Positions 6,648-53,621 of a stretch of DNA of 64,000 bases are shown here, one piece after another. Every line of letters starts with the position of its first letter. The stretch's first letter is position 1. Where the stretch lies: the IMG/VR virus record IMGVR_UViG_3300043411_001904; one strand, given 5' to 3'. Under the pieces are notes generated by a model. The model did not search any database. It saw only the letters and a list, made by a program, of their open reading frames with translations, and was not told where the DNA came from. The DNA comes from an uncultured virus (IMG/VR IMGVR_UViG_3300043411_001904). Taxonomy: Duplodnaviria; Heunggongvirae; Uroviricota; Caudoviricetes. A program made the position numbers and the translations under genes.

Positions 6648-7823
6648 CTAAACCTTATCAATATCAAACATACCTAATTTCTTCATACCCAATAAAAGAT
6701 CATTCAAAAGAGGCTGATAAACTTTTTGATTGTCAAAATTATCTTTAATATACAATTTAGTATACATCTGACTTATCTTTTTACAATGATCAACTAATGA
6801 ATTGAAAAGATAGTGTGGTGATTTTTCTGTCTTTGCTTGAAGAAAAGCATACTTTAACTGGTTAGATGTAAAATCAGAAATATCATTTGGTAACATACCC
6901 GCTGATTTCATTTTAGCTAGAGTATAACTCAAATACAGTCCCCAAGATGACTTAACATCATCAATTGATTTAAGATCAATATTCTTAACAGACTCAGGAG
7001 AGTATTTCAATATATGACCAGAGATAACATTCCAAGCTAATTTTTTATCTCCATCGAATTTAGAAGATACTTGGTCCAAAATATCATCCATCATAATAAC
7101 ATTACCTTCCGAAGACGACATCTTCTTACCATCAACCATAACCAACCCAAGACCAATATGATCAATATCAGGAAACAGAGATTTCAATGATTTAAAATGA
7201 TTATCTTGCTCAAATCCAGTTATGTATAAAGTAGACCCATCTAGTTTTTGTGCCAATGTAACATCTTGATAGAAATAGGAACTAGATCCGTCAGATTTAA
7301 TCCCAACAATCTTTGATCCATTAACATCAAAAACAAGAGTACCTTTATACTCTCCAACACCATCTTCAAGAATGGAAGTATTGACTAGCTTTTGTCCGGA
7401 AGCAAAATGAATTGAATCAATTTTATACCCAAATGATTCACAATGAGATTTAAATTTATCCAAGGCATCATCTTGATCAACCTTACCGGACAAAGTATCA
7501 CCTAAAATAGCAATATATTTTTCCCCAATACCTAATGATTGGATAGATTTTGCAAAAATCAAATTGGATAAGTGTCCCAAGTGTAGATGTTTATTCAAAT
7601 TTGGAGAAAATCCATCAACAAATTCATAAACCTTAGGTGATTCAAAAAGATCATATAGATTTTGATCTCCAATTAGAATATTAGTAAATCCACCCGATTT
7701 CTCAGATTCTAATCCCCAATGAGATATCCAATCAGATACTTTCTGATTCGGATCTCCCCATACACAGAAATTAAATCCCATGTTTTTAGGAGTAGTTTTA
7801 ATATCGGATATCTTGATCTTCAT
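6648..7823 (-). CDS. argS: arginyl-tRNA synthetase (compact, Arg-free)
   Basis: SPNLNKHLHLGH (HIGH), KSDG..Y..QD, YITGFEQDNHF, KMSSSEG (KMSKS), GLYLSYTLAK; start at MKIKIS directly after a TATATTTG promoter. Confidence 0.88.
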   Translation of the reverse strand: MKIKISDIKTTPKNMGFNFCVWGDPNQKVSDWISHWGLESEKSGGFTNILIGDQNLYDLFESPKVYEFVDGFSPNLNKHLHLGHLSNLIFAKSIQSLGIGEKYIAILGDTLSGKVDQDDALDKFKSHCESFGYKIDSIHFASGQKLVNTSILEDGVGEYKGTLVFDVNGSKIVGIKSDGSSSYFYQDVTLAQKLDGSTLYITGFEQDNHFKSLKSLFPDIDHIGLGLVMVDGKKMSSSEGNVIMMDDILDQVSSKFDGDKKLAWNVISGHILKYSPESVKNIDLKSIDDVKSSWGLYLSYTLAKMKSAGMLPNDISDFTSNQLKYAFLQAKTEKSPHYLFNSLVDHCKKISQMYTKLYIKDNFDNQKVYQPLLNDLLLGMKKLGMFDIDKV

Positions 7824-7839
7824 GGAACAAATATACGAA

Positions 7840-9258
7840 TTAAATCCGATCGAATAAAATTTGCTTTTTGCCACCCTTTATTAAAAGGTCAATCTCATCA
7901 CATTTCTCTTTTCCAAACAGCGGAACATATAAAGAATTAACAACATTCAATAGATAATCCAAATTTGATAATTGACTAAGATAATCAGTTGATGACCACG
8001 GCTTATTATCATTAATATACTTATTACCAACTTTAACCAACTCATTAGTAAATCTCAAAGCATCTTTTACTTTGAAATTGTTCCAAGATTCTCTCACTTT
8101 TTTATCATATGACAAAACCAAATCAACAAAATCATTTTGAGGATTAACTAGATTCCCTTCACATTTAATATCAACTAGATGGAGGACCCTAGACACCAAA
8201 TTGCCCCAATCATTCACAATTTCAGAGTTCCAAATATTCTTCAAATCGTCCTCATTCCAGGAAGAATCTGAATATGTACTTAGTCCACCCAAAGCATAGT
8301 ATCTAACGGGATACAATCCATATTTATCTAATTGTTCAATAGGATCTATAACATTCCCAATACTTTTGGAAATCTTAAGTCCATTTTTATCTAGAATCGT
8401 ACCATGCACCAATAACTTTCCGGTTTTCTTAATACCTTCAGATTCCAAAAATGATTGAAATATGATAGCCTGAAATCTAAGATTATCAGGACCACAAATC
8501 TGCACCACATCATTCCAATTAAAATTATCTGTTAAATATCCAGCAGCAAATATGTAATTTAATAAGGCCTCCAACCACACGTAAATGATCTGAGAATCAT
8601 CATCGGGCACTGAAATTCCCCAAGGACATTTTTGTACACTTCTAGACACAGATATGTCACCCACATTATCTATTAGATTATATAACTCATCTAATTTCGA
8701 TTTAGGTTCTAAGAAATTAGGATTTTGCTCAATCCAATTCAATAAAGAATTTCGATATTTAGAAATCTTAAAGAAATAATTCTCTTCTTCTATAATTTCA
8801 ATATTTGTTGTAGGATGATCTAAGCATTTACCATCAACTAGATCAGAGTCTTGTTTGTGTGATTCACATCCTTTGCAATATTTTCCTTTGTAAAATCCTT
8901 TATAAATATCTCCGCGATCTACAAACCTAGACCAAATTATCTTAACTTTCTCATGATGGTCGGGATCAGACGTCTTATAAAAGGAATCATACTCAATACT
9001 AAACCGATCACAGAAATCTTTCCAAGTATGTGTTAAATTCTTAATATATTCCGGAGTTGGAATTCCAATCTCTTGAGATTTCTCCCAGACTTTGGCTCCG
9101 TGTTCATCCAAACCAACATTAAAGTGAACATCATCCCCAATACTCTTGAACCATTTAGAGATAGCATCACCAAGAATAAATTCAAAAGCATGGCCAATAT
9201 GAGGAACTGAGTTCACATATGGCAAAGTGGTGGTTATAAATTTGTTTTTGATTTCTAT
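7840..9258 (-). CDS. metG: methionyl-tRNA synthetase (Met-free, no AUG start)
   Basis: KFITTTLPYVNSVPHIGH, GLDEHG, CxxC knuckle, YVWLEAL, KISKSIGN, NDWGNLVSR; start placed at ATA 9258 (alternatives ATT 9267, ATC 9252, TTG 9225). Confidence 0.9.
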   Translation of the reverse strand: MEIKNKFITTTLPYVNSVPHIGHAFEFILGDAISKWFKSIGDDVHFNVGLDEHGAKVWEKSQEIGIPTPEYIKNLTHTWKDFCDRFSIEYDSFYKTSDPDHHEKVKIIWSRFVDRGDIYKGFYKGKYCKGCESHKQDSDLVDGKCLDHPTTNIEIIEEENYFFKISKYRNSLLNWIEQNPNFLEPKSKLDELYNLIDNVGDISVSRSVQKCPWGISVPDDDSQIIYVWLEALLNYIFAAGYLTDNFNWNDVVQICGPDNLRFQAIIFQSFLESEGIKKTGKLLVHGTILDKNGLKISKSIGNVIDPIEQLDKYGLYPVRYYALGGLSTYSDSSWNEDDLKNIWNSEIVNDWGNLVSRVLHLVDIKCEGNLVNPQNDFVDLVLSYDKKVRESWNNFKVKDALRFTNELVKVGNKYINDNKPWSSTDYLSQLSNLDYLLNVVNSLYVPLFGKEKCDEIDLLIKGGKKQILFDRI

Positions 9259-9266
9259 TGATTTAA

Positions 9267-10445
9267 TTAATAACTTACAGGAAATGGAATAACATCATGA
9301 ATTTTCTGACTCTTACAAATATACATTAAAAGCCTTTCAAATCCTAAACCAAAACCTGAATGAACAACTGATCCCCATCTTCTAGTGGACAAATACCAAT
9401 CCATTTTTTGTATATCAATTCCAGAGCTCATAATTTCTGACTTTAGCTTGTCATAATCATCTTCTCTTTGGGAACCACCAACCAATTCTCCAACCTCTGG
9501 AAATATTAAATCGAAACACAAAGCCTTATCACCTTCGGTTTTCATATAAAATGGCTTCAATGACTTTGGATAATGTGTAATGAAAACAGGCAACTTATAC
9601 TTATCTGATATCAATTTTTCAACTTCAGATCCAATATCCTCACCATATTTAACTCCAAATTCTTTGCAAATTTCATCATATGTCCGAACAATCCAATCAG
9701 GATCAACAATTTTTAAATGATCAGATCCAATTCCCAACTGAGAAAATTCATAATCAGATTTAGTAACCACATATCTAATCGTCTTCTTCAAAAAATCCTC
9801 AGTGAATTTAACTGTTTGATCCAAATCGTAAAAAGCCATCTCAGGCTCAATCATCCAAAATTCAGATAAATGTTTCTTAGTTGCTGATTTCTCAGCTCGA
9901 AAACACGGAGAGAATGTATAAATTTTACCCAATGACATCATACCAACTTCACCATGAAGTTGTCCCGACACAGTTAGTTTTTCATCCATCCAATCTGATT
10001 TTACATCAAACGTCTCTCCGGCTCCTTCACAATCAGCATGGGTAATAATCGGGGTATAATATTGATAAAATCCAAAGTCCTCCAAAGTCCTATGGATAGC
10101 TTGTGTCAAATGATGTCTAATCTTCCATGTAGCTTGAAATCCTTTCGTTCTACCCCTTAGTTCAGGAATGGTTCTAAGGTAATCTAATGTGTGATGTTTT
10201 GGTTGAATAGGATAATCATCATCAGAAGAACCAACAATTTCTATTCGAGATGCCAAAAACTCAGGCAGTCCCTTAGGTGTCATTGAATCCATTCCCTGAC
10301 ATATCAGAGACGACCCAACTTTTGGGTCCCCAATGACCACACAATCTCCATCCCTTGCGGTGACTTGGTGATCTCTAGCACCATCTGTAACTGATAGGAA
10401 CATCAATCCCTTTGATTTCCTAACTGATTTTATCCAACCTTTCAT
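9267..10445 (-). CDS. asnS: asparaginyl-tRNA synthetase (Asn-free)
   Basis: OB-fold start (KGWIKSVR), DCEGAGETF, LTVSGQL, FRAEKS..KHLSEFWMIEPE, GELVGGSQRE, GFGLGFERL. Confidence 0.92.
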   Translation of the reverse strand: MKGWIKSVRKSKGLMFLSVTDGARDHQVTARDGDCVVIGDPKVGSSLICQGMDSMTPKGLPEFLASRIEIVGSSDDDYPIQPKHHTLDYLRTIPELRGRTKGFQATWKIRHHLTQAIHRTLEDFGFYQYYTPIITHADCEGAGETFDVKSDWMDEKLTVSGQLHGEVGMMSLGKIYTFSPCFRAEKSATKKHLSEFWMIEPEMAFYDLDQTVKFTEDFLKKTIRYVVTKSDYEFSQLGIGSDHLKIVDPDWIVRTYDEICKEFGVKYGEDIGSEVEKLISDKYKLPVFITHYPKSLKPFYMKTEGDKALCFDLIFPEVGELVGGSQREDDYDKLKSEIMSSGIDIQKMDWYLSTRRWGSVVHSGFGLGFERLLMYICKSQKIHDVIPFPVSY

Positions 10446-10701
10446 CTTCAATTTGTTTTATTTTGTTGCTCCTTCTTAATACTTTAAGGATTGATCTGAA
10501 TTCTTCTTTATGATCTTCTTTCCATAACGTGGTTCCCGATCCACAATTACCATAAAAAACCGTCAATCCTATTCTATCTCCACTATCTACATACTCCCAA
10601 GATATTGGTGTATTAGGAGATAAAATTCCCGGAAATGTCAACCTAATAGCCTCTAAAATAACAGGATCAGAATTAGGAAATTTAACCTCTTTATACTCCA
10701 T
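10420..10701 (-). CDS. hypothetical protein with C-terminal RxxKI motif
   Basis: RRSNKIKQI near C-terminus. Confidence 0.6.
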   Translation of the reverse strand: MEYKEVKFPNSDPVILEAIRLTFPGILSPNTPISWEYVDSGDRIGLTVFYGNCGSGTTLWKEDHKEEFRSILKVLRRSNKIKQIEDERLDKIS

Positions 10702-11133: not shown

Positions 11134-11136
11134 GTG

Positions 11137-11208
11137 TGACCTCACCGGGAGTCGAACCCAGATCGAAAATTTAGGAAATTTTAATTCTATCCATTGAACT
11201 ATGAGGTC
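11137..11208 (-). tRNA. tRNA-Arg(CCT)
   Basis: cloverleaf GACCTCA..TGAGGTC, anticodon loop TTCCTAA, TTCGACT T-loop. Confidence 0.92.
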
Positions 11209-11378: not shown

Positions 11379-11394
11379 ATTGTTAGTATTTTTG

Positions 11395-11480
11395 TACCGG
11401 AGGTTGGAGTCGAACCAACAATAGGAGTAAACCAATCCCCTTATGAGGAGGACACCATTACCACATCGGATCACACCGGC
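11395..11480 (-). tRNA. tRNA with CAT anticodon (Met or Ile2) on a long-variable-arm body
   Basis: TCCTC-CTCATAA-GGGGA; about 15-nt variable region; GTTGG-TTCGACT-CCAAC. Confidence 0.8.
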
Positions 11481-13511: not shown

Positions 13512-14231
13512 TTAAGTCTCTAATATAGTAAATTTATTATTCCACCAACAGGGAATATAATTATTAATTTTACAATGTTCAATAAGTGATTTTTTCTTCT
13601 CATCAACAGTTAAAAAATATAATGGTCTTGAGTATTTATTAGTAGGATTTTTACTTATAACAGATTTACACTCACACAAATAAATTTTTCCATTACTATC
13701 TTTTATTATAAAGTCGGGAGTATATCTCCTGATTTTACCATCATATAAGTATTCTATGTGGTCATAAAATCTATCCAACTCGATAACACTGTAATTTTTA
13801 CAAAAGAATGTAAGGAAATTAAATTCCAATTTTGAATCACATCTTACGGATTTTCCATCAAATATAAATTCACATCTAATCGAATTAAACGAGAATTTAC
13901 CCTCAGATCTAGCTTTGGTAGATTTTATTGAAGCATTGGTTCTATAAGACTCATTTTCCCAAGTTCTTTTTATTGAACAACTATGGGAACACGTCTTTTG
14001 ATTTCTTTTACTAAAAGTAACAATGAAATCTCTACTACAATAAAGACAAATTTTGTTAATTTTTGGATTTCCAGAATTCTTTTTTAGAAGAGTTTTACTA
14101 ACCTTAGTATTTATCTCCAATCTCTTATTTCTTGTTGAAAACGATCTAGAACAAACACGAGAGCAAAACTCTCCACTTGAATATTGACTATATTTCATTC
14201 CATCTTTTTCTCCACAATTTTTACAAATCAT
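13512..14231 (-). CDS. Zn-finger plus TnsA-like PD-(D/E)XK endonuclease (putative homing endonuclease)
   Basis: CxxC..CSxxC repeats; DSKLE..YTPDF..ECK. Confidence 0.75.
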   Translation of the reverse strand: MICKNCGEKDGMKYSQYSSGEFCSRVCSRSFSTRNKRLEINTKVSKTLLKKNSGNPKINKICLYCSRDFIVTFSKRNQKTCSHSCSIKRTWENESYRTNASIKSTKARSEGKFSFNSIRCEFIFDGKSVRCDSKLEFNFLTFFCKNYSVIELDRFYDHIEYLYDGKIRRYTPDFIIKDSNGKIYLCECKSVISKNPTNKYSRPLYFLTVDEKKKSLIEHCKINNYIPCWWNNKFTILET

Positions 14232-14445: not shown

Positions 14446-14448
14446 TAG

Positions 14449-14531
14449 AAGCGGGAATCAGATTCGAACTGATGTTCTCTTTCGAGTTAGGGCTTATGAG
14501 GCCCCTGGTACCATCTCCAGTCGATCCCGCG
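14449..14531 (-). tRNA. initiator-like tRNA-Met(CAT) with extra variable hairpin
   Basis: C1:U72 mismatch; GGGC-CTCATAA-GCCC; CTC-GAAA-GAG extra arm. Confidence 0.75.
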
Positions 14532-14634: not shown

Positions 14635-14639
14635 ATTAG

Positions 14640-14725
14640 TGATTCTGGTAGGAATCGAACCTACGTTAACCTATTCGGCCTTCCGGTTGTAAGCCGGACG
14701 TTCTTAACCACTGAACTACAGAATC
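14640..14725 (-). tRNA. tRNA-Val(TAC) with long variable arm
   Basis: TCCGG-CTTACAA-CCGGA; GGCC-GAATA-GGTT extra arm. Confidence 0.8.
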
Positions 14726-14888: not shown

Positions 14889-14894
14889 ATTTTG

Positions 14895-14971
14895 TTGCGA
14901 CGAATGGATTTGAACCACTGACCTTTCCCCTAATAAGGTGGGAATGCTCTCCCTGACTGAGCTACATCGCA
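14895..14971 (-). tRNA. tRNA-like gene, undetermined anticodon (10-nt loop)
   Basis: TTCCC-ACCTTATTAG-GGGAA with intact other arms. Confidence 0.7.
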
Positions 14972-15504: not shown

Positions 15505-16161
15505 TTAATAACTTTTATCTTCATTATACCTAACCATTCTAGAATGTCTCCCTTTACCCCTGTTCAAAGATTTGTAAGTTGGAGTCAATGAATGACAATT
15601 TGGACACAATAATTTCAAATTAGATAAATCATTATTTTCTGAATTTCCATCAATATGTTCTATTTCGATTGGAACCTTTCCTGTTGTCAGATTAATTTGA
15701 CACCATCCACAATCCATACATTTATTACCATGTGTTTTAATCAGATATTTTTTAATCGACCTACTAGAACCATTTCCACTTACAATTATTAAATTTCTTA
15801 ATTCTTCTTTATGTAAATCATTGCAATTCTTTGAACAATATTTAACATTCCCCTTACCAATTATCTCAGAGTCACAAACTACACATTTCAATCTCCACTT
15901 CACTCGGGTCCTATTAACATTAATAGCTGAACATCTTCTGCTACAAAACTTTCTACCATCTGAAACAATACATTTAAATTCCTTATTACAATTTTCACAT
16001 TTAACTGTTTCTCTTTTAGAGTCATAGAATTTTGATGAAATAGATAACTTTGATTTAATTCTAACTATTGTAGATCTAGAAACTCCCAATTCCTTAGAAA
16101 TTCTAAAATTTGACATCCCCTGATCAACTAACTCAAATACATCAGCCCATAATTTTTCCAT
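15505..16161 (-). CDS. HNH homing endonuclease with HTH and Zn fingers
   Basis: ISKELGVSRSTI HTH; EHIDGNSENN..NLKLLCPNCH. Confidence 0.9.
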   Translation of the reverse strand: MEKLWADVFELVDQGMSNFRISKELGVSRSTIVRIKSKLSISSKFYDSKRETVKCENCNKEFKCIVSDGRKFCSRRCSAINVNRTRVKWRLKCVVCDSEIIGKGNVKYCSKNCNDLHKEELRNLIIVSGNGSSRSIKKYLIKTHGNKCMDCGWCQINLTTGKVPIEIEHIDGNSENNDLSNLKLLCPNCHSLTPTYKSLNRGKGRHSRMVRYNEDKSY

Positions 16162-16206
16162 ACCCTATATATTCAGAAGTGTGAGCTTCCCTTGGAAAGG
16201 GAGTAG

Positions 16207-16294
16207 AGCCGGGAGTGGGATTCAAACCCACGATGGTCGCTTTCGCTATACTAACTTACAAGGTTAGGGCCTTCGTTCTCTTGGCTATCCCGGC
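16207..16294 (-). tRNA. tRNA-Thr(TGT) with long variable arm
   Basis: CTAAC-CTTGTAA-GTTAG; GC-GAAA-GC extra arm. Confidence 0.8.
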
Positions 16295-18301: not shown

Positions 18302-18342
18302 TTTACAAATATAAGAAAATATTCTAAATCTTCACAATTATG

Positions 18343-18415
18343 CGGGTCCAATAGGGTACGATCCTATAATGTCTGATTAACAGTCAGAAGTGATGTCCGT
18401 TTTCACCATAGACCC
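18343..18415 (-). tRNA. tRNA-Asn(GTT)
   Basis: TCTGA-CTGTTAA-TCAGA; G73. Confidence 0.88.
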
Positions 18416-19066: not shown

Positions 19067-19079
19067 ATTTATTATTTTG

Positions 19080-19149
19080 CTCCATCAATAGGATTCGAAC
19101 CTATACCTCCGAGATAAATCTCGGTGTGCCACCGTGACACCACAATGAA
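19080..19149 (-). tRNA. tRNA-like gene with collapsed anticodon loop
   Basis: CCGAGA-TTTA-TCTCGG; other arms intact. Confidence 0.7.
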
Positions 19150-19226
19150 TAGAGAATAAACCCTTCTACCAAAAAAGATTTACTCTCAAGAGATTGGACA
19201 ATTGGTAGACAACCCGCCACTCTTTG

Positions 19227-19299
19227 TAGTCCCACCGGGATTCGAACCCAGACCCATTGTTTAGAAGACAATGACGCTTTCCAGTTACGCCATGGAACC
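19227..19299 (-). tRNA. tRNA-Arg(TCT)
   Basis: ATTGT-CTTCTAA-ACAAT. Confidence 0.92.
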
Positions 19300-19309
19300 A
19301 TGTTTGTTG

Positions 19310-19393
19310 TCCAAGAGGAAGGATTCGAACCTCCGTAAAAGATCCACAAACGCAAATCGTTGTGAAAATTGACTTCCAATAGTCTACTCTCGG
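19310..19393 (-). tRNA. tRNA-like gene with extended anticodon arm
   Basis: CCGAGAG/CTCTTGG acceptor; D and T arms present; TTCACAA..TTGTGGA long arm. Confidence 0.65.
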
Positions 19394-19426: not shown

Positions 19427-20134
19427 CTAATCCAAAATTCCATTTGATTTTAATTCTTTAATCACTCCGGATATAGTTCCTTTACTACAATTTAATTCTT
19501 TTCTAATTTCACTCTGTTTCATTCCATTACGATACATATCTAGAACAACATTTCTATCTATTTTAGATCTCAATTCTTTAATATTCGTTGATTTTAATAA
19601 TATTTCTTTCTTGTTAAGTTCAAAGAACTCAAAACTTGAATGTATTTTAATGTGACAATTGGCACATAAAACTACACACTTACTCAGCTCATTAGAAATA
19701 TCTTCACTAATATCCAATATTGATCTTAAGATTATATTAATTGATTTCAATTTGAATTTCTTATCTCTTAAATGGTGAAAATGAAGAGAGCAATATTTAT
19801 CATATCCACACTTCTCACATCTTATAACATTTTTATATTCCAAAAGTATTTTCTTGTTATTTCTCTGTCTATTATTAATTTGATCACCAAAATGTAATTC
19901 ATGATGGCAATTATGACATATCAATTCACATTTCATAATTTCCCTTTCAATAATTGACATTCTATGATTTCTAATATCATTTATATCAAATTCTTTATCA
20001 ATTGGATTAATATGATGAAAGCATAACTTAAATATATCTGATTCTTCACATTTAATACATTTCCCACCCATTGAATTTATTACTTTAATTCTTTTTGCTA
20101 ATTTAAGTATCTTCGTGCTAATAATCTTTTTCAT
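19427..20134 (-). CDS. tandem-HNH endonuclease with C-terminal HTH
   Basis: two CxxC..FHH..C..LCxNCH units; IRKELNCSKGTIS. Confidence 0.88.
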   Translation of the reverse strand: MKKIISTKILKLAKRIKVINSMGGKCIKCEESDIFKLCFHHINPIDKEFDINDIRNHRMSIIEREIMKCELICHNCHHELHFGDQINNRQRNNKKILLEYKNVIRCEKCGYDKYCSLHFHHLRDKKFKLKSINIILRSILDISEDISNELSKCVVLCANCHIKIHSSFEFFELNKKEILLKSTNIKELRSKIDRNVVLDMYRNGMKQSEIRKELNCSKGTISGVIKELKSNGILD

Positions 20135-21035: not shown

Positions 21036-21137
21036 TTTTGTATATATTAACTTTTTTCTCTCCCTTTTGAGATATTTGTATTCTATTACAAATATAGTAC
21101 TAAGTTTTTATAATTTACAAATTTATTATAATTTTAT

Positions 21138-21791
21138 TTACCAACGGTCTGTTTCTTTTGAAGACAAATCATCCTCAACAATATATTCTAATAAGGACTC
21201 TATGGAATCATATTTTTTCTTACCATAATCACTGAATATTATATTATTCTCAGATATATAGTGAACCTGTTTCATGTAATTATGACTATCATGAGAATAT
21301 AATAATCCAAAAAGAACATACCCACCATCCATTCTTTTTAGTTTATTTCCTAGGAATTTAATAGAATCTACAACATCTGTCTTTAATTCAAACTTCTCTT
21401 CGTTATCATCCATAGAATATCTAGTTACAATTACGAAGTGTGCTTGTTCAGTCTCCTTATTGAATCCTGAAACGTAAACACCATCCAATTGGATAAAATA
21501 TCTGTTAGCTAAATCGTGATGAACTTTATCTTCACTCTGATTTTTCTGAAATACAAAATTTAATTGATCATCATCTAAATCAAAAATACTCTTGGGAAGA
21601 GATCCGAACTTTTCCTCAGATTCTTTTTCTTTTCTTTCTCTAAGAATGGATCGAATGAATCTTATTTGATCTTCAAGAAGTTCCTGCTCCTCAAACATAA
21701 CATCTAGTTTTTCTCTTAACTCATCATCGTCCAAATTATGAAGAAAGTCAATATTCATATTTTCTTTAATGAATTGGTTATACTTCTTCAT
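21138..21791 (-). CDS. hypothetical late protein (MKKYNQFIKE tag)
   Basis: TAATATATA upstream; N-terminus closely resembles the T4 capsid-targeting sequence. Confidence 0.7.
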   Translation of the reverse strand: MKKYNQFIKENMNIDFLHNLDDDELREKLDVMFEEQELLEDQIRFIRSILRERKEKESEEKFGSLPKSIFDLDDDQLNFVFQKNQSEDKVHHDLANRYFIQLDGVYVSGFNKETEQAHFVIVTRYSMDDNEEKFELKTDVVDSIKFLGNKLKRMDGGYVLFGLLYSHDSHNYMKQVHYISENNIIFSDYGKKKYDSIESLLEYIVEDDLSSKETDRW

Positions 21792-30731: not shown

Positions 30732-31485
30732 GGGGCTGAGATTATACCCGTTATCGACAAATCTTTTGTGAGATTATGTTTTCCTCACTTATCCACCAAT
30801 GTTGCCACTGGTATCTTGTCAATCTCAGTTACTTGAAGGGTAACCAATCCTATCGTGTGTCCAAACTCAACCATTACTCCATCTATTCAGAAGTGCCCTC
30901 CTGATTCAACCTTGCGGGTCTATAAACTTTTCGTGATCAAAACAACAGACCTTGCGGGTTTATTGTCTCCCAATTTACCAAAGGTATTAGGAATTAGAGA
31001 CCTTTCGGAAATACACGCCACGAGAATTTGGCTTTATTTTATATAATGCAATAAAATTGATTATTGGACGACGCTCTCGTGGAGCAGCTACGATCCTTTT
31101 GGAATCACAATACTACACGCCATCCTATCAGTTCCCTGATGGTCAAGAAGATCTCCGCTAAAAGCGTCATGAATCACACGCACATAGTGCGGGACACAGA
31201 ACACATATTCCACATCGACCAACTAAACTGAAACAAGCATTCTAGAAGTTGGCTTCTATCACACTCAAATCCACAAATCATCTTATAGCCTTAAGCATCA
31301 AACACCACATTTAGGGACATAATCACATCCATAGTATGATATTGAGATCCAAGTCACTTGACCGAGGTTCTCATACCGATTCGCTTATGATTAAACTCTT
31401 TAACAAGTCGGGATTGTTACCCTTTATCCCCGTTACCGGGTATTATTTATTCACATCCGAAGATGTGATGGACTCCATACAGCCC
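30732..31485 (-). ncRNA. large ornate ncRNA, GOLLD-like (about 750 nt)
   Basis: no credible ORF; higher GC; 5' GGGCTG pairs with 3' CAGCCC; many GNRA/UUCG hairpins (CCCGCAAGG twice, CCGAAAGG, CTTCGG); next to tRNA-like genes; family name from size and recalled motifs only. Confidence 0.65.
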
Positions 31486-31939: not shown

Positions 31940-32017
31940 AAGAATATTCAAAGAACATTAACAATACAAATATAAGTAAAAATTTCTGAACTACAAAATA
32001 TTTTTTACTTTTTTTAG

Positions 32018-32104
32018 TGACCCGTTGTGGATATGAACCACAATCCCACATCCCATCTGGTTAACCCAATCGGGAATCTTGTGTCTTGCTTAGACTAACG
32101 GATC
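32018..32104 (-). ncRNA. tRNA-like RNA with extended anticodon arm
   Basis: GATCCGT/ACGGGTC-A; GTCT/AGAC D-stem; TGTGG-TTCATAT-CCACA. Confidence 0.65.
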
Positions 32105-34523: not shown

Positions 34524-35079
34524 AACTAGTCTTAATAATTAATTGGTTTCTAGATGATAAATATTCATGACCACTGATAAAATCAATTATATCCGTATGT
34601 AAATCACCTCTATATCTTAAGATCACAAAATCATTAAAAAATCTAATATTATATGAATTTAAATTTGAATCGAAACAAACCAAATTCAATGAACTAAGAA
34701 AAAGTTTTATCAATTTTGGATTTGTTATAAAGTAATTACCACTAGAGAAAATACAGTTATATGAAGAGTCTTGTATGCTAAACTTAAAACCATCGAAAAA
34801 CTCATTTAATTCTGAACAAGAATTGATAAAATCCATCATAACATTTCTATACTCATCAAAATTGGAGATAGTTAAAGAATTTTTTGATGAATCTCTAAGA
34901 GTTAATTTTAGATATGATTCAAAGTATTTAATAGAGTTGAAATTAAAATGATGATCTGAATCCATCCAAACACCATGTCCTGATTGATTAAGTGAATTAT
35001 GACTCCAATCTATCCGATTCGTATCTAATATATCAGAAAATAAGTCAGATAAATAGTCGTTCGTTGGAAACTCTATCAT
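34501..35079 (-). CDS. hypothetical protein
   Basis: 192-aa coupled ORF. Confidence 0.55.
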   Translation of the reverse strand: MIEFPTNDYLSDLFSDILDTNRIDWSHNSLNQSGHGVWMDSDHHFNFNSIKYFESYLKLTLRDSSKNSLTISNFDEYRNVMMDFINSCSELNEFFDGFKFSIQDSSYNCIFSSGNYFITNPKLIKLFLSSLNLVCFDSNLNSYNIRFFNDFVILRYRGDLHTDIIDFISGHEYLSSRNQLIIKTSFDWCEKN

Positions 35080-36086
35080 AGATTATATATTAGATCAGAT
35101 ATTAATTTTTTTGACTCTACATATCGATTAGACCAATCCCCACCAACTGTAATATACATCTTACAAAATCTCTCTAGATTTGATTTAAGTTCATTAAAAT
35201 GTTCCACTCTACCATTTAGAAACTTTCTTGTGCCATCTTGAACTGAATCACAATTTGGTTCTAATAAAATATATAGATCGTAATCATACGAAGTTATTTT
35301 TTTCGTAAAATATTCTTCGTATTTAATATATTCATCGGGACAATACATTTTAGAATAGGTGTATGTAGTGATATCCTCAGTGTCACAAACTATTAAACCA
35401 TTCGAATATCCAACCAACCAATCTTCCAACTCTTGTCTTCCCTCGGATATGTGATGAAAATCATCTATTTCTAAATTAGGTTTATTTTCCGCAACTAATC
35501 TACCATATTCAGGTAAAAAATTTGTATTAAAATATGAAGCAAGATTTTGAGTTAAATAACTTTTACCAGTTGATTCAGGACCAACAATAGCGACCCTTTT
35601 GACAAAAAAGGGTCTAATTTGATCCGATATGAATCTCCAATTTTTAATTGGATTGTTTCTAATCATCGTCCCGGATATAGGATATTTTCTACGGTCCTTA
35701 TCAACTAAAAAATGATCAATTCCTAAATATCTAGCAAAGTCATCACCATAGTCCTCAGAAGTAAAAACAACATCTAAACTTTCAACAATTCCATATACAA
35801 CAGGAACCCACAAGGAATAAAATTCATCTAGAGAATTAGATTCTTTATCACTTTGTGGTAATCCGGTATCATCAAAGATATAAACAGTAACATTTGTGTT
35901 ATCTTTATAAATCTCCTTTATACAATTAAATCTCAATTCTCCTGGAATCCATTGACTTGAATTATGACATATAACAATGTGAGTATGATCACTATATTTT
36001 ATAGCGGTGTCAATAAGATATAAATGCCCCAAATGTGGGGGCATTGCTTTCATTAATACTAATGAACTTCTATATCTTTTCTCCAT
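35076..36086 (-). CDS. nadR: NadR-type NMN adenylyltransferase / ribosylnicotinamide kinase
   Basis: PPHLGH, FTSEDYG, ISGTMIR, GPESTGKS, PEYGR, CDT. Confidence 0.9.
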   Translation of the reverse strand: MEKRYRSSLVLMKAMPPHLGHLYLIDTAIKYSDHTHIVICHNSSQWIPGELRFNCIKEIYKDNTNVTVYIFDDTGLPQSDKESNSLDEFYSLWVPVVYGIVESLDVVFTSEDYGDDFARYLGIDHFLVDKDRRKYPISGTMIRNNPIKNWRFISDQIRPFFVKRVAIVGPESTGKSYLTQNLASYFNTNFLPEYGRLVAENKPNLEIDDFHHISEGRQELEDWLVGYSNGLIVCDTEDITTYTYSKMYCPDEYIKYEEYFTKKITSYDYDLYILLEPNCDSVQDGTRKFLNGRVEHFNELKSNLERFCKMYITVGGDWSNRYVESKKLISDLIYNL

Positions 36087-36589
36087 TTAAAGAACCCAAA
36101 TACACAAATTATCAGGAATATAAAATATACTGCACTAGACAACCATAGTTTATTTTCAATGAAGAGAAATATCATAAATACATCACAAAGTATCCAAAAT
36201 ATCCAAGACTCAACCTTTCGATATATCATCAAATAAGATCCCAACAAACTTAAAGAACTTGTTAAAGAATCTAAAGTAGAATTGCTACCATTAAAATAAT
36301 TAGATATAAAATACAAAGCACCCCACATCGGAAAAACTATCAACAGAGTCCACCTATTACTTAAATAGGATATCTTTTCATTCGAAACTGTACTCCACCT
36401 AAACCAACCAACCAAAGATTGAACAGCAAATACAACTTGAATAGACATATTTATCCAATCCCTAGTATTCTGAAATATAATAAAGTAAAAAAATATACCA
36501 ATCAATCCCATTGGCCAATACATTACACTAGACCTATAGGCTAAAATGACAGCTGCCAAACTAAATAGAACCGCAAATATTTCTATCAA
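36059..36589 (-). CDS. pnuC: PnuC-family vitamin (nicotinamide riboside) transporter
   Basis: multi-TM; WPMG, GWFRW, LDS..SL.G.YLM..KVESWIFW..D. Confidence 0.88.
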   Translation of the reverse strand: MIEIFAVLFSLAAVILAYRSSVMYWPMGLIGIFFYFIIFQNTRDWINMSIQVVFAVQSLVGWFRWSTVSNEKISYLSNRWTLLIVFPMWGALYFISNYFNGSNSTLDSLTSSLSLLGSYLMIYRKVESWIFWILCDVFMIFLFIENKLWLSSAVYFIFLIICVFGFFKWRKDIEVH

Positions 36590-36590
36590 T

Positions 36591-38711
36591 TTAACTAATA
36601 TTGAATTTTAAATTCACAAAATAATTTCTCGTGGATCCGGGATAATATTGTCCTAATCTAAATCCATTTCCTGTCAACACTCCACCCGGTAACAAGTACT
36701 TTTGGTCCAAAATGTTATTGACTAATAAACCAATAGAAAAATTCTTAACTCTAATATCACATGTAAAGTTAGAAATATAATATGGACTAGTTGATAATTC
36801 ATCATCTTCCTCATTATTTAAATACATTTTACCAACATACATTCCATTCAAACCAATTTTAACTCTATTACCATATCTCACAAAATTATTCATAGTAAAG
36901 TTTGGTGAAAATGAAGACTTCCCAACTCCCCTAATCTCCGCATTTAAGTATGATCCATTAATTCCAAAATACCAATTTCTATAAGAGTACTCAGATTCAA
37001 TTTCTAATCCATATCTGTGACTCCTATCGGCAATTTGTCGAATAGGTAATCCATAGATATTATCAAACCCAATAATTAATCTTTCATTTCTAATATCCAT
37101 GTGATAAAAATTATAAGACATAGAAAACCTATCTATCCTTGATGTAATATCAAATTTATTGCCTACTTCAATATTAGTAATTATCTCTGGTATAGTATTG
37201 GGAAATATTTGATACAGATTAGGACTATTCAAATTTGATTCTCCAAGATAATCTGAATACATTGATTCCCCATTGATATAAACATTATCATTGGTATCAA
37301 ATAAATCAGATCTAGTGACTTCTCTACTAGTTTGACCAAATGACACCCAAGACTCATTACTGTCTCTAATTCGTTTAATTCCAAATTTTGGATTGATAAA
37401 GTCCCAACCATAATTTACCTTAGACCCATTCTCATCAGTGTATATAAAATCAACACCTCTGTATTGAATATCAGCAAATAATGAATAATCATTAGCTTTG
37501 TATGAAAATCGACTATATGCAATAACATCTTCCTTATTTCCAAAATTAGAATATCTCAAGGTATCTAAAGAAGATAAGTTATGCTCCCTCTGATAAATAT
37601 TATAATTTATTCCAGTATTGATGCTCAATCTATTTTTACTCCAAACCATGTTTGACATACCACCGCCTTGATAGGAAACTATTCCATATTTACCATATCC
37701 ATCTAGATTATAATAACCATTAACATTATTAAAATATATCGAAGAATTAAACACTATATGCGATCCCGTCGAATTTATCCAATTTAAAGCAGCAAAATTC
37801 TGACCAAATCTATCTCTATCATTTGGAGAATTGAAATTAATTCTATAGTTCTGATTTAGGGATTCCTTATCAATCGGAATATATGATAGATCGTTCATAG
37901 ACATACCACTAAACCCATATAATTTCAATATGTTCTTTTTATTAAAAAATCCTAATTGCCCAAAATAATTATACCCATCCGATCCAGAATTTTCTCTAAA
38001 TCCATCAGTTTGTAAATAGTTAAGACTAGATGAAAATGCAACTTTACCCAATAACCCAGAAGAGTACTCCAAATATGTTGAATTGGTCCCGAATGATCCA
38101 AGTCCAATTTGACCAATTATCTCACGATCTAAAATAGATTTTAATTCCATATTCACAGACCCAACGACAGATGATGTGCCATACTTAGACAACCCAACTC
38201 CACGAACAATATCCATCCTAGAGACTGAATTATAAAATCCAGGCATATTGCTAAAATAAATTCCCTGATCTTCCATTTCATTCATAGGAATTCCATTCAA
38301 AGTAAAATTAATTCTAGTCTGATCCATTCCTCTCATTCTTAAATATGAATACCCATATTGGGATCCGTTGTCTGATTGAACAGTCATGTTTGGGACTTTT
38401 CGACTAAGAGTAAAAAATGGATCTGATCCCGCGTTTGATACATCACGAACCGAATCAGATTCAATTGTCGTTATTGTAACTGGATCGGATTTAGTTGGTC
38501 TTATACCAATAACTTGAAATTCCACTAAATCCATCTCTTGAGAAAATGCGAAATTAGAAATTAGAAACAATAAAAGTAATATCCTTCTCAACTTGCGTGA
38601 AATATCATATTTTAGTCGATTTAAAGATATTTCTTTTAATTTTTTCAAAGTTGGAACAATGTCATAATACCTACCATTGAAAATATATGCATCATAAATT
38701 TTAGTGCTCAT
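36591..38711 (-). CDS. TonB-dependent outer-membrane receptor
   Basis: signal-like LRRILLLLFLISNFAFSQ; plug motifs RMRGMDQTRINFTLNGIPMN and VRGVG; C-terminal NNILD..YYPG..RNYF. Confidence 0.88.
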   Translation of the reverse strand: MSTKIYDAYIFNGRYYDIVPTLKKLKEISLNRLKYDISRKLRRILLLLFLISNFAFSQEMDLVEFQVIGIRPTKSDPVTITTIESDSVRDVSNAGSDPFFTLSRKVPNMTVQSDNGSQYGYSYLRMRGMDQTRINFTLNGIPMNEMEDQGIYFSNMPGFYNSVSRMDIVRGVGLSKYGTSSVVGSVNMELKSILDREIIGQIGLGSFGTNSTYLEYSSGLLGKVAFSSSLNYLQTDGFRENSGSDGYNYFGQLGFFNKKNILKLYGFSGMSMNDLSYIPIDKESLNQNYRINFNSPNDRDRFGQNFAALNWINSTGSHIVFNSSIYFNNVNGYYNLDGYGKYGIVSYQGGGMSNMVWSKNRLSINTGINYNIYQREHNLSSLDTLRYSNFGNKEDVIAYSRFSYKANDYSLFADIQYRGVDFIYTDENGSKVNYGWDFINPKFGIKRIRDSNESWVSFGQTSREVTRSDLFDTNDNVYINGESMYSDYLGESNLNSPNLYQIFPNTIPEIITNIEVGNKFDITSRIDRFSMSYNFYHMDIRNERLIIGFDNIYGLPIRQIADRSHRYGLEIESEYSYRNWYFGINGSYLNAEIRGVGKSSFSPNFTMNNFVRYGNRVKIGLNGMYVGKMYLNNEEDDELSTSPYYISNFTCDIRVKNFSIGLLVNNILDQKYLLPGGVLTGNGFRLGQYYPGSTRNYFVNLKFNIS

Positions 38712-52362: not shown

Positions 52363-53103
52363 ATGGTTGAATCTATGCTTAAGAAACTCGAATGTTTCAA
52401 TGACTCAAATTTTAAATTCGATCCCTCCCAACATAAATACACATATGATGGGAAAACATATACATCTGTAACTCAATTCATTCAGCAATTTCATAAAAAA
52501 TTTGATCAAGAATATTGGTCAAAAAAGAAATCCGAAGACAGGGGTATCTCTCAAGAAGAGATTTTAAAAGAGTGGAAAGATAAAAATGAGTATGCTAATT
52601 TAGTAGGAAGTGAAACTCACCAATGGATAGAAGACTATTTCAACGGAATACATAAAAAAATACCAACAAATTTAGATATTGTTGATCGAATAAATAAATT
52701 CAATATTATTTATGCTAAGGATATTCACAAACTAACACCTCTAAAATTTGAAACAAGAATATTTTCAAAAAATTATCCGATAGCAGGAACCATCGACTCA
52801 CTTTTCCTATATAAGAATAATCTTATAATATTTGACTATAAAACGAATGGTAAGTTCACAAATGATGAACATATAGATGGAAGATGGGAAAATCTATTGG
52901 ATCCATTTCAAGATATATTCCGTAATCACCTAAACGAGTATTCAATTCAAGTATCATTATATTCTTTGATTCTACAAGAGTGGGGATTTGATGTTAGAGC
53001 ATCATACCTATTACACATAGGACCAACTGAGGATCCAAAAATCTATAAAGCTCACGATTTCAGAAATAGACTTGATACATATATGAAAAATTATAATTGG
53101 TAA
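52363..53103 (+). CDS. PD-(D/E)XK (Cas4/lambda-exo-like) nuclease
   Basis: SVT, GSETH, E..AGTID..DYKT, YSIQVSLY. Confidence 0.85.
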   Translation: MVESMLKKLECFNDSNFKFDPSQHKYTYDGKTYTSVTQFIQQFHKKFDQEYWSKKKSEDRGISQEEILKEWKDKNEYANLVGSETHQWIEDYFNGIHKKIPTNLDIVDRINKFNIIYAKDIHKLTPLKFETRIFSKNYPIAGTIDSLFLYKNNLIIFDYKTNGKFTNDEHIDGRWENLLDPFQDIFRNHLNEYSIQVSLYSLILQEWGFDVRASYLLHIGPTEDPKIYKAHDFRNRLDTYMKNYNW

Positions 53104-53132
53104 ACTTTATAAAAAATAATCATAGAAAAATC

Positions 53133-53621
53133 ATGAAAATATTTATAGTAAATTTCGAGCAAATCATAAAAAATTATACACCATATCAAAATTCTTCCAA
53201 GGAAATTGAAAATGAGAAAAATAAATTTACCAACAGAGTCCAAGAAATCAAAAATGAAATGGAGACAATCGTCAATTCATCAAGGCTTTTAGTACTTGAC
53301 CAATCTCTAAAGGAACAAAATGGATTAAAGCTAAGAGAACTTCAAGCAGAGGGAATGAAACTTGAATCAGAATTCAGGTATATGATATCTCAAAAACAGA
53401 ATGAGATTCTAGAAAAAAACTTCTCTGAAATTTCTGATATTGTTAAAAAATGGGCTACTGACAACAAAGCAGACATTGTATTAAACAATAACTCTATAGT
53501 ATTCTCAAAGGAATCTCTAGATGTCACTGATAAAATAGTAGACATATTAAAGAAAGAGAATCTATATTCAGAGTGGATCGAATCAGAAAATTATGCTGAG
53601 GTATCACAGGAATTAAATTAA
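53133..53621 (+). CDS. OmpH/Skp-like coiled-coil chaperone lacking a signal peptide
   Basis: IVNFEQIIKNY..coiled coil..IVKKWA..ADIVL..LDVTDKIVDIL. Confidence 0.65.
   Translation: MKIFIVNFEQIIKNYTPYQNSSKEIENEKNKFTNRVQEIKNEMETIVNSSRLLVLDQSLKEQNGLKLRELQAEGMKLESEFRYMISQKQNEILEKNFSEISDIVKKWATDNKADIVLNNNSIVFSKESLDVTDKIVDILKKENLYSEWIESENYAEVSQELN

Follow-up and report, generated by a model that had tools for sequence, protein, structure and literature searches.

Why should a virus build tRNA-charging enzymes without the very amino acid that each of them attaches? The question is raised by a 64,000-nucleotide stretch of DNA from an uncultured member of the Caudoviricetes (IMG/VR record IMGVR_UViG_3300043411_001904), referred to here as the window, in which an asparaginyl-tRNA synthetase (AsnRS), a methionyl-tRNA synthetase (MetRS) and an arginyl-tRNA synthetase-like protein (ArgRS-like) sit tightly packed, all in the same orientation, as an operon of a huge phage whose size class is that of the Mahaphages. 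AsnRS contains no asparagine, MetRS no methionine and the ArgRS-like protein no arginine, while the other two residues are used freely in each case (16 Arg and 13 Met in AsnRS, 21 Asn and 11 Met in the ArgRS-like protein, 35 Asn and 11 Arg in MetRS). These absences had been pointed out in an original prediction made from the sequence alone, and counts over the open reading frames (ORFs) agree with it: of the raw ORFs on the minus strand, the one at 6648-7874 has no Arg, that at 7840-9225 no Met and that at 9267-10451 no Asn. The gene starts are inferred and not given directly by the ORF calls; homologues place an ATG at 7823 for the ArgRS-like gene and at 10445 for AsnRS, giving proteins of 391 and 392 aa.

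At the residue frequencies of 64 ORFs in the window (N 6.5%, R 3.9%, M 1.7%) the chance of finding none is, by our own arithmetic, about 3e-12 for Asn, 2e-7 for Arg and 3e-4 for Met, in line with the first estimates of roughly 1e-11, 1e-7 and 1e-4. The nearest phage records are LR745206.1, LR756504.1 and LR756502.1, all uncultured, with sizes of 634,780, 636,363 and 642,428 bp, which we take to belong to the Mahaphage clade; at the proteome frequencies of LR745206.1 the binomial probabilities are 4e-13 for Asn, 7e-7 for Arg and 1e-4 for Met. Among the 19 window ORFs of at least 250 aa, a residue other than His or Cys is absent only in these three synthetases.

The meaning of such a pattern depends on what the proteins are. 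The product of the first gene scores 387.2 bits against TIGR00457 (asnS), above the equivalog cut-off of 342.6, slightly below the cut-off of NF003037 (403.5 against 414 bits), and 203.7 bits against PF00152; the OB-fold anticodon-binding domain (PF01336) reaches 21.4 bits, below its cut-off of 27, and is precomputed for most homologues. Its closest solved structures are the AsnRS entries 6pqh (3e-74) and 5zg8, the latter aligning end to end, and the class II motifs FRAE and GFGLGFER can be read in the translation. The protein is predicted to be a class IIb AsnRS that charges tRNA-Asn. MetRS matches PF09334 with 245.2 bits (cut-off 20.1), falls 16 bits short of the cut-off of TIGR00398 (320.2 against 336.35), and reaches 376.7 bits against 598 for NF008900, the C-terminal tRNA-binding part being absent. 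It keeps the HIGH motif (as PHIGH) and the CxxC...CxxH knuckle, and reads KISKS where KMSKS is expected; relatives with a single remaining Met carry it mostly near position 297, corresponding to the KMSKS position. A free-standing tRNA-binding domain of 176 aa that resembles the MetRS C-terminal domain occurs in LR745206.1 at 21133-21663 (L008:1133-1663:+); it has 0 Tyr where 8.8 are expected, a deficit that is not significant after correction.

The third protein is the most divergent. PF00750 is matched with 28.9 bits (cut-off 23.3) over residues 176-270 only (95 residues), and TIGR00456 with 45.9 bits, far under 261.65. A profile built from 65 homologues nevertheless retrieved ArgRS in all six of its matches in the PDB (best E-value 3e-6), and the AlphaFold model (pLDDT 94.2) retrieved ArgRS chains at ranks 1-19 of a Foldseek search (E-values 3e-16 to 1e-12; CysRS, GluRS and MetRS rank lower), with TM-scores of 0.62-0.74 on the query and 0.41-0.57 on the targets. 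Alignment to yeast ArgRS starts at yeast residue 129 and retains the SPN, Y...D and GHL elements, candidates for contact with arginine; at 391 aa, against about 580 aa for the full-length enzyme, the protein lacks the N-terminal Add1 domain. The modelled fold points to a very divergent, minimal ArgRS without its N-terminal domain. The altered motifs named in the original prediction (FRAEKSAT, TDG, GHLS, KMSSS, YTLAK and KISKS) are all present in the translations. The further suggestion was that the loss reaches normally conserved motif positions. In FRAENSNT, however, Asn is not a universal occupant of its two positions, both being Lys in a Staphylococcus-type AsnRS from a control contig, and the effect is less drastic than had been implied.

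Whether the three absences are a peculiarity of one genome can be judged from homologues. For each enzyme the best 120 database homologues were collected as cluster representatives, many of them lying on contigs of 400-780 kb; the sets contain related sequences, so that the counts are not independent events, and the ArgRS and MetRS sets take in the window's own proteins together with some incomplete gene calls. Asn is absent from 91 of the AsnRS set, occurs once in 19 and 2-8 times in 10 (lowest identity to the query 62%). The ArgRS-like set comprises 72 proteins without Arg, 17 with one and 31 with 2-8 (lowest identity 50%), and the MetRS set, counted for internal Met, 75 with none, 19 with one and 26 with 2-11 (lowest identity 51%). 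Each set serves as a control for the other two: Asn makes up 0.11% of the AsnRS set, against 8.0% and 7.9% of the others, Arg 0.27% of the ArgRS-like set, against 3.4% and 2.3%, and Met 0.26% of the MetRS set, against 2.8% and 2.1%. An alignment of 119 AsnRS sequences has 302 variable columns, and yet Asn occupies only 48 of its 46,586 cells. The count of cognate residues in orthologues proposed with the original prediction thus came out in its favour.

Cellular-type AsnRS enzymes on two unverified 'phage' contigs, used as controls, have 22 and 13 Asn, and the 150 best 50%-cluster representatives of AsnRS have a median Asn content of 3.5%. Seven of these 150 have none (one is a 157-aa fragment), and they belong to lineages 36-47% identical to the window AsnRS. 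On a FastTree tree the low-Asn rows stand at several positions and require at least six changes; many forks of this tree are unresolved, and multiple origins are a lower-bound reading of it. Scans of IMG/VR with zero-Asn AsnRS proteins of other lineages (P0461, P0416) retrieved no relatives, and their genomic context was not found. For MetRS, IMG/VR yielded two loci in a single-sequence scan and 18 in a profile scan; the enzymes at 31-37% identity have 9-14 Met and those at 40-62% identity 0-7.

The other synthetases of the relatives give a second and broader view. Pfam-guided searches combined with NCBIfam naming identified 25 further synthetase-like ORFs in the three relatives, which with four in the window makes 29, and the purge was found in at least 12 further synthetase types. 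The cognate residue is completely missing from IleRS (0/735 Ile, 66 expected), AspRS (0/454 and 0/425 Asp in two genomes), AsnRS (0/392 Asn), ValRS (0/443 Val), the ArgRS-like enzymes of two genomes (0/392 and 0/393 Arg) and an AlaRS-like protein (0/248 Ala), and, with weak significance, from HisRS-like (0/211 and 0/210 His in two genomes) and TrpRS-like (0/239 Trp) proteins. MetRS has 0/457 and 2/485 Met in two genomes. The cognate residue is nearly missing from LysRS (1/378 Lys, 33 expected), ThrRS (1/386 Thr), GlnRS (1/532 and 1/533 Gln in two genomes), GluRS (6/492 and 3/490 Glu in two genomes) and GlyRS-like proteins (1/246 and 3/225 Gly in two genomes). IleRS, AspRS, GlnRS, GluRS and ThrRS of the relatives score above curated equivalog cut-offs, as does the window AsnRS. 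Judged from these sequences, the purge would be a clade-wide rule covering nearly all synthetases of these phages.

The list also takes in a PheS-related ligase of LR745206.1, encoded at 613818-614897 (L037:13818-14897:-). It belongs to NF051887, the 'PheS-related mystery ligase SrmL' (423 bits, cut-off 300), and contains 0 Phe in 359 aa where 18 are expected; by the missing-residue rule its substrate would be phenylalanine.

The same association emerges when annotation is left aside. All 1,782 ORFs of the three genomes (604 + 540 + 638) were scanned for any residue occurring zero times or once at Bonferroni significance. Sixteen ORFs passed, 12 of them depleted in a single residue alone, and 11 of these 12 are synthetase-family proteins missing the matching amino acid. 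The remaining four of the 16 are charge-poor structural or surface proteins in which 3 to 8 further residues are scarce as well. Some weaker outliers for a single residue, among them a 466-aa protein with H=0 and a 329-aa protein with P=1, fail multiple-test correction and match no family. Among surface proteins, a 1670-aa SprB-repeat protein with a CHU_C type IX secretion signal in LR756502.1 (514378-519390; L127:14378-19390:+) is nearly uncharged (K 0.7%, R 0.1%, E 0.5%) and of Bacteroidota type. Type IX secretion is known only from the Bacteroidota, and the protein points to a Bacteroidota host.

The manner in which the residues have been replaced is also informative. IleRS has an excess of 28 Leu and 18 Val, AspRS of 33 Glu, ValRS of 18 Ile, LysRS of 22 Arg and GluRS of 20 Asp. 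Replacement is conservative, Leu or Val standing in for Ile, Glu for Asp, Ile for Val, Arg for Lys and Asp for Glu. The few cognate residues that are left lie in motifs common to different genomes: the Glu residues of GluRS in LEDTD, (Q/N)EW and VEIMS, that of LysRS in PELYLKRL, that of ThrRS in QCGTLQLDF, and that of both GlnRS enzymes in VQMMRKG. Selection against cognate codons, limited by function alone, would produce a pattern of this kind.

We incline, if only slightly, to the reading that selection freed each enzyme's synthesis from dependence on its own aminoacyl-tRNA. That such enzymes can be elongated when the matching aminoacyl-tRNA is absent was the core of the original prediction, and as a target of selection it is strongly supported by four results, namely its conservation over hundreds of homologues, its recurrence in 12 or more further synthetase types, replacement by similar residues, and the confinement of residual cognates to invariant motifs. 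Selection would have removed every codon for the enzyme's own amino acid, and the rate and accuracy with which synthetase X is translated would thereby no longer depend on X-tRNA. If a single aminoacyl-tRNA then collapsed in the infected cell, there would be no stalling or misreading on the mRNA whose product relieves the shortage. Since each enzyme avoids only its own amino acid, the selected property would be the removal of a self-loop. Shortages of single species could stem from the skewed demand of an AT-rich phage, from starvation, from tRNA-specific defence of the kind treated in parts of PMC11555353, or from phage interference with host synthetases, on which passages of PMC7162821 bear. 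We infer that the enzymes act on tRNAs of the phage or the host, that infection does bring shortages of single species, and that cognate-free genes then give an advantage in yield. Cognate tRNAs are encoded near the synthetases both in the window and in the relatives, and an ultrasensitive ribosome-stalling model has been set out, in sections of PMC4209129, for the cognate bias of biosynthetic enzymes.

Several observations weigh against this reading. The twelfth single-residue purge of the blind scan is a CCA-adding enzyme with one Tyr and not a synthetase. The missing-residue rule had predicted this Tyr-poor 388-aa protein of LR756504.1 to be a TyrRS, and Pfam identifies it as a CCA-adding enzyme, so that the rule failed once; its sole Tyr lies before the likely ATG, and its homologue in LR745206.1 (31% identical) has 6 Tyr in 206 aligned residues. 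Not every synthetase is purged, moreover: a GluRS of LR756504.1, sharing 47% identity with the purged GluRS that has 6 Glu, contains 40 Glu in 533 aa, a GluRS catalytic fragment of LR745206.1 has 21 Glu in 285 aa, a LeuRS-like protein of the same genome has 18 Leu in 422 aa, and the GluRS fragment of the window, with 7 Glu in 260 residues against about 18 expected, does not follow the rule cleanly (it scores 225 bits against gltX_bact, cut-off 290, and 123 bits against GluQRS). Beyond its own amino acid every enzyme still depends on the other 19, and a simultaneous loss of several charged tRNAs would not be rescued; MetRS still needs a charged initiator tRNA, and an initiator-like tRNA with a CAT anticodon is encoded in the window; an additional synthetase creates no free amino acid where that is limiting; and host synthetases are stable, which makes a shortage of charging an assumption.

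What could bring such shortages about leads to the alternative that survives best, although we consider it improbable as the explanation of the purge. It holds that the phage restores a host tRNA or synthetase that has been disabled, whether by an anticodon nuclease, a toxin or the phage itself, with a tRNA and enzyme pair built from nothing. Attacks on single tRNAs are documented in the portions of PMC11555353 that deal with retron-Eco7 PtuAB (tRNA-Tyr) and PrrC (tRNA-Lys), both countered by phage tRNAs, and a passage of PMC7162821 describes a huge-phage CRISPR spacer aimed at the glycyl-tRNA synthetase of the host. The window has a tRNA array and a polynucleotide-kinase-like gene, several of its tRNAs bear extra arms that host enzymes or nucleases might handle poorly, and the single-species logic of the purge suits a defence directed at one tRNA. 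In the window, however, neither a nuclease or toxin nor a synthetase inhibitor was identified; a cleaved tRNA is not replaced by a synthetase; and 16 specificities over four genomes would imply very many distinct attacks. As the trigger put forward in the original prediction, a disabled host synthetase or tRNA is only compatible with the published single-tRNA attacks (in the parts of PMC11555353 cited above) and with the polynucleotide-kinase-like gene.

The purge could instead protect fidelity. Many of these phage enzymes would have lost their editing domains, and a synthetase without codons for its own amino acid could be spoiled neither when it mischarges nor when hungry cognate codons are misread, which would break an error loop that amplifies itself. 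ValRS (443 aa), the LeuRS-like protein (422 aa), ThrRS (386 aa) and the AlaRS-like protein (248 aa) fall well short of their family models in length and match them piecewise, and the pattern does remove the self-loop only. Nevertheless, AsnRS, ArgRS, MetRS, AspRS, LysRS and GlnRS, which are not known to have an editing domain in cells, are purged as completely, and IleRS, retaining most of its length at 735 aa, shows the strongest purge, which renders avoidance of an error loop quite unlikely. Less likely still, indeed very doubtful, is a function apart from translation, in which the proteins, as paralogues of synthetases, would act for instance as amino-acid ligases for some other acceptor or as decoys that bind tRNA, and which the depletion would serve. 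Several are truncated or very divergent, the ArgRS-like protein with its low equivalog score among them, the Phe-free protein belongs to the SrmL family and the GluRS fragments resemble GluQRS; against this, AsnRS, IleRS, AspRS, GlnRS, GluRS and ThrRS lie above their equivalog cut-offs, anticodon-binding domains are retained, cognate tRNAs are encoded alongside, and the clearest non-canonical paralogues, the GluRS fragments, are the very ones that are not depleted. It is hardly credible that the pattern is without adaptive significance and stems from chance, from base composition, from an incorrect genetic code, from an artefact of assembly or from the saving of a scarce amino acid: some distant zero-Asn AsnRS proteins do come from Lys-poor, Ala-rich and probably GC-rich proteomes in which Asn is rare anyway, and charge-poor structural proteins also give extreme single-residue counts, but the missing residue differs from enzyme to enzyme and is always the cognate one, neighbouring genes are normal in composition, the pattern recurs in independent assemblies from several sources, and the synthetases do not share the loss of 3 to 8 further residues that marks the structural outliers and that also speaks against depletion as a general property of phage proteins. 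Another genetic code is rejected, as the long ORFs of the window read well in table 11 despite a tRNA with a TTA anticodon, and an economy of 10-60 residues per molecule would be negligible.

The removal of cognate codons in MetRS raises the question of where its translation begins. No ATG, GTG or TTG occurs between the upstream stop codon and the conserved first strand, FITTTLPY, in the window, in LR745206.1 or in the IMG/VR locus L064. The candidate starts in the window are an ATA at 9256-9258 and an ATT at 9265-9267 that overlaps the TAA stop of AsnRS (TAATT). Homologues with an ATG start read ATG GAA AT- (M-E-I) at the place where the window and LR745206.1 read ATA GAA ATC (I-E-I). In about 40 of the 120 best MetRS homologues the gene call begins at the Val of YVNS (a reading of the protein listing, at protein level only), which suggests that these genes may present the same start-codon problem. 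A non-AUG start of MetRS thus appears likely in this subclade. An initiator-like tRNA with an anticodon other than CAT, such as might start MetRS at ATA, was sought in the window and not found, the sole initiator-like tRNA there being CAT. At the L064 locus (L064:1483-2205, on a 109 kb IMG/VR contig) the MetRS frame reaches a stop midway through the catalytic domain, after YVWFDALL; either an insertion interrupts the gene or it is broken.

Taken together, these strands admit a wider and decidedly more tentative proposal, that the tRNA-charging machinery encoded by viruses is marked in general by cognate-free composition, a trait evolved repeatedly. Such composition would hold for nearly all Mahaphage-type synthetases and recur in distant AsnRS, may reach the CCA-adding enzyme, would allow the substrates of orphan ligases such as SrmL to be read from the missing residue, and in MetRS would extend to the start codon itself (ATA for ATG).

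The surroundings of the operon are those of a phage, with tail-fibre proteins, an endolysin, HNH endonucleases, PhoH and an exonuclease. Upstream of the operon stands a minus-strand array of 22 tRNAs predicted by ARAGORN, out of 23 in the window, and 14 of the 23 reach the Rfam gathering score; the three relatives have 59, 38 and 46. Besides tRNAs for Asn and Arg there are two with a CAT anticodon and one that is initiator-like (Table 1); the last has a CAT anticodon, a C1/U72 mismatch and a GGG:CCC anticodon stem, features that we take to mark an initiator. The Met, Val, Thr, Ala and Gly tRNAs (11394-11480, 14639-14725, 16206-16294, 19309-19393 and 32017-32104, minus strand) measure 85-89 nt and bear an extra arm or insert, and two others on the minus strand (14894-14971 and 19079-19149) are odd, one having a TTA anticodon that would read TAA and one a six-base anticodon loop. 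Genes for HNH or TnsA-like endonucleases are interspersed in the array (13512-14231, 15505-16161 and 19427-20134, minus strand). A full-length GOLLD RNA (RF02032, 252 bits against a gathering score of 150) lies within the translation-gene region at 30733-31125 (minus strand). The regions 35076-38711 (minus) and 53097-53621 (plus) encode an NadR-type NMN adenylyltransferase, an NMN transporter and an OmpH-like chaperone, together with a 706-aa protein that has a TonB-dependent-receptor plug domain.

Table 1. Location of the synthetase genes, tRNAs and related features; positions are those of the window unless an accession is given.
Feature	Position	Strand	Evidence
AsnRS, 392 aa, zero Asn codons	9267..10445	minus	profile and structure-relative matches
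MetRS, about 472-475 aa, zero Met codons	7840..9267 (start candidates 9258/9267)	minus	profile matches
Putative minimal ArgRS-like enzyme, 391 aa, zero Arg codons	6648..7823	minus	profile, AlphaFold, Foldseek
GluRS catalytic-domain fragment, 264 aa	27278..28072	minus	PF00749, 164.7 bits
tRNA-Asn (GTT)	18342..18415	minus	ARAGORN and Rfam, 53.3 bits
tRNA-Arg (CCT)	11136..11208	minus	ARAGORN and Rfam, 59.8 bits
tRNA-Arg (TCT)	19226..19299	minus	ARAGORN and Rfam, 55.4 bits
Initiator-like tRNA (CAT), 84 nt	14448..14531	minus	ARAGORN; outside the Rfam gathering matches
CAT-anticodon tRNA (Met or Ile2), 87 nt, extra arm	11394..11480	minus	ARAGORN only
CCA-adding enzyme, 388 aa, 1 Tyr (20 expected)	LR756504.1 107701-108867 (L075:7701-8867)	plus	PolyA_pol head and RNA-binding domains

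In cells, leader-peptide attenuators and T-boxes couple the supply of a synthetase to the charging of its cognate tRNA. There, cognate codons or a tRNA-sensing RNA are placed before the gene and sense the shortage; in these phages the cognate codons have been removed from the gene, so that the shortage cannot block it. An Rfam scan found no T-box or known leader in the window. A close conceptual precedent is the cognate bias discussed in PMC4209129 (2014), which models ribosome stalling and the resulting stalemate; an earlier paper on cognate bias, from 2005, is cited in PMC3937554. The principle, as passages of PMC4209129 present it, is that suppliers of amino acid X are selected for little X and can be made when X is short, and the phage enzymes would share it. 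That bias, in the sections concerned, is statistical and belongs to cellular biosynthetic pathways, whereas here it is complete (zero) and found in the aminoacyl-tRNA synthetases of viruses; the 'synthetase' named in those sections of PMC4209129 is tryptophan synthetase alone, and tRNA synthetases do not figure there. On the reading favoured here, the purge would be the cognate-bias principle at its limit.

Other phage systems share part of this logic. In the code-change operon of Jade phages (Borges et al., bioRxiv 10.1101/2021.08.26.457843), according to parts of that report, the genes for a suppressor tRNA, TrpRS and a release factor avoid needing the capacity that they install, which is a likeness; the matter treated in those parts is a reassigned stop codon and the timing of lysis, and not a sense amino acid removed from its charging enzyme. 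Phage tRNAs that replace those destroyed by defence (Azam et al. 2024, PMC11555353) likewise restore one decoding capacity, but the system as described in the relevant passages consists of tRNAs and not enzymes, with no compositional adaptation. Synthetases rank with the most thoroughly studied enzymes, and those of huge phages have been catalogued since 2020. Al-Shayeb et al. (2020, PMC7162821) report as many as 15 synthetases and as many as 67 tRNAs in single genomes of huge phages of the same kind as those considered here, and propose that these redirect translation; the synthetase and Mahaphage passages of that paper make no mention of the synthetases' amino-acid composition. The original prediction knew of no description of the pattern for phage synthetases, and the full-text literature searched, with subscription journals and supplements outside its coverage, holds no account of synthetases without their cognate amino acid in phages or elsewhere.

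If the purge has been read correctly, it would be a sequence-level sign of what selection has acted upon, that is, of charging kept going through the shortage of a single species, and would turn the idea of translation redirected by huge phages into a testable mechanism. Cognate bias, a weak statistical trend in metabolism, would become an absolute rule at the self-referential loop of the genetic code. Active-looking IleRS, AspRS, LysRS, ValRS and other folds would be buildable from 19 amino acids, which may be useful for engineering reduced alphabets and codes, and the missing residue would offer a simple rule for the specificity of divergent synthetase-like proteins. It also flags a probable non-AUG start in MetRS, and an ATA start, if true, would make the initiation of MetRS synthesis either sensitive to how much charged initiator tRNA is present or independent of it.

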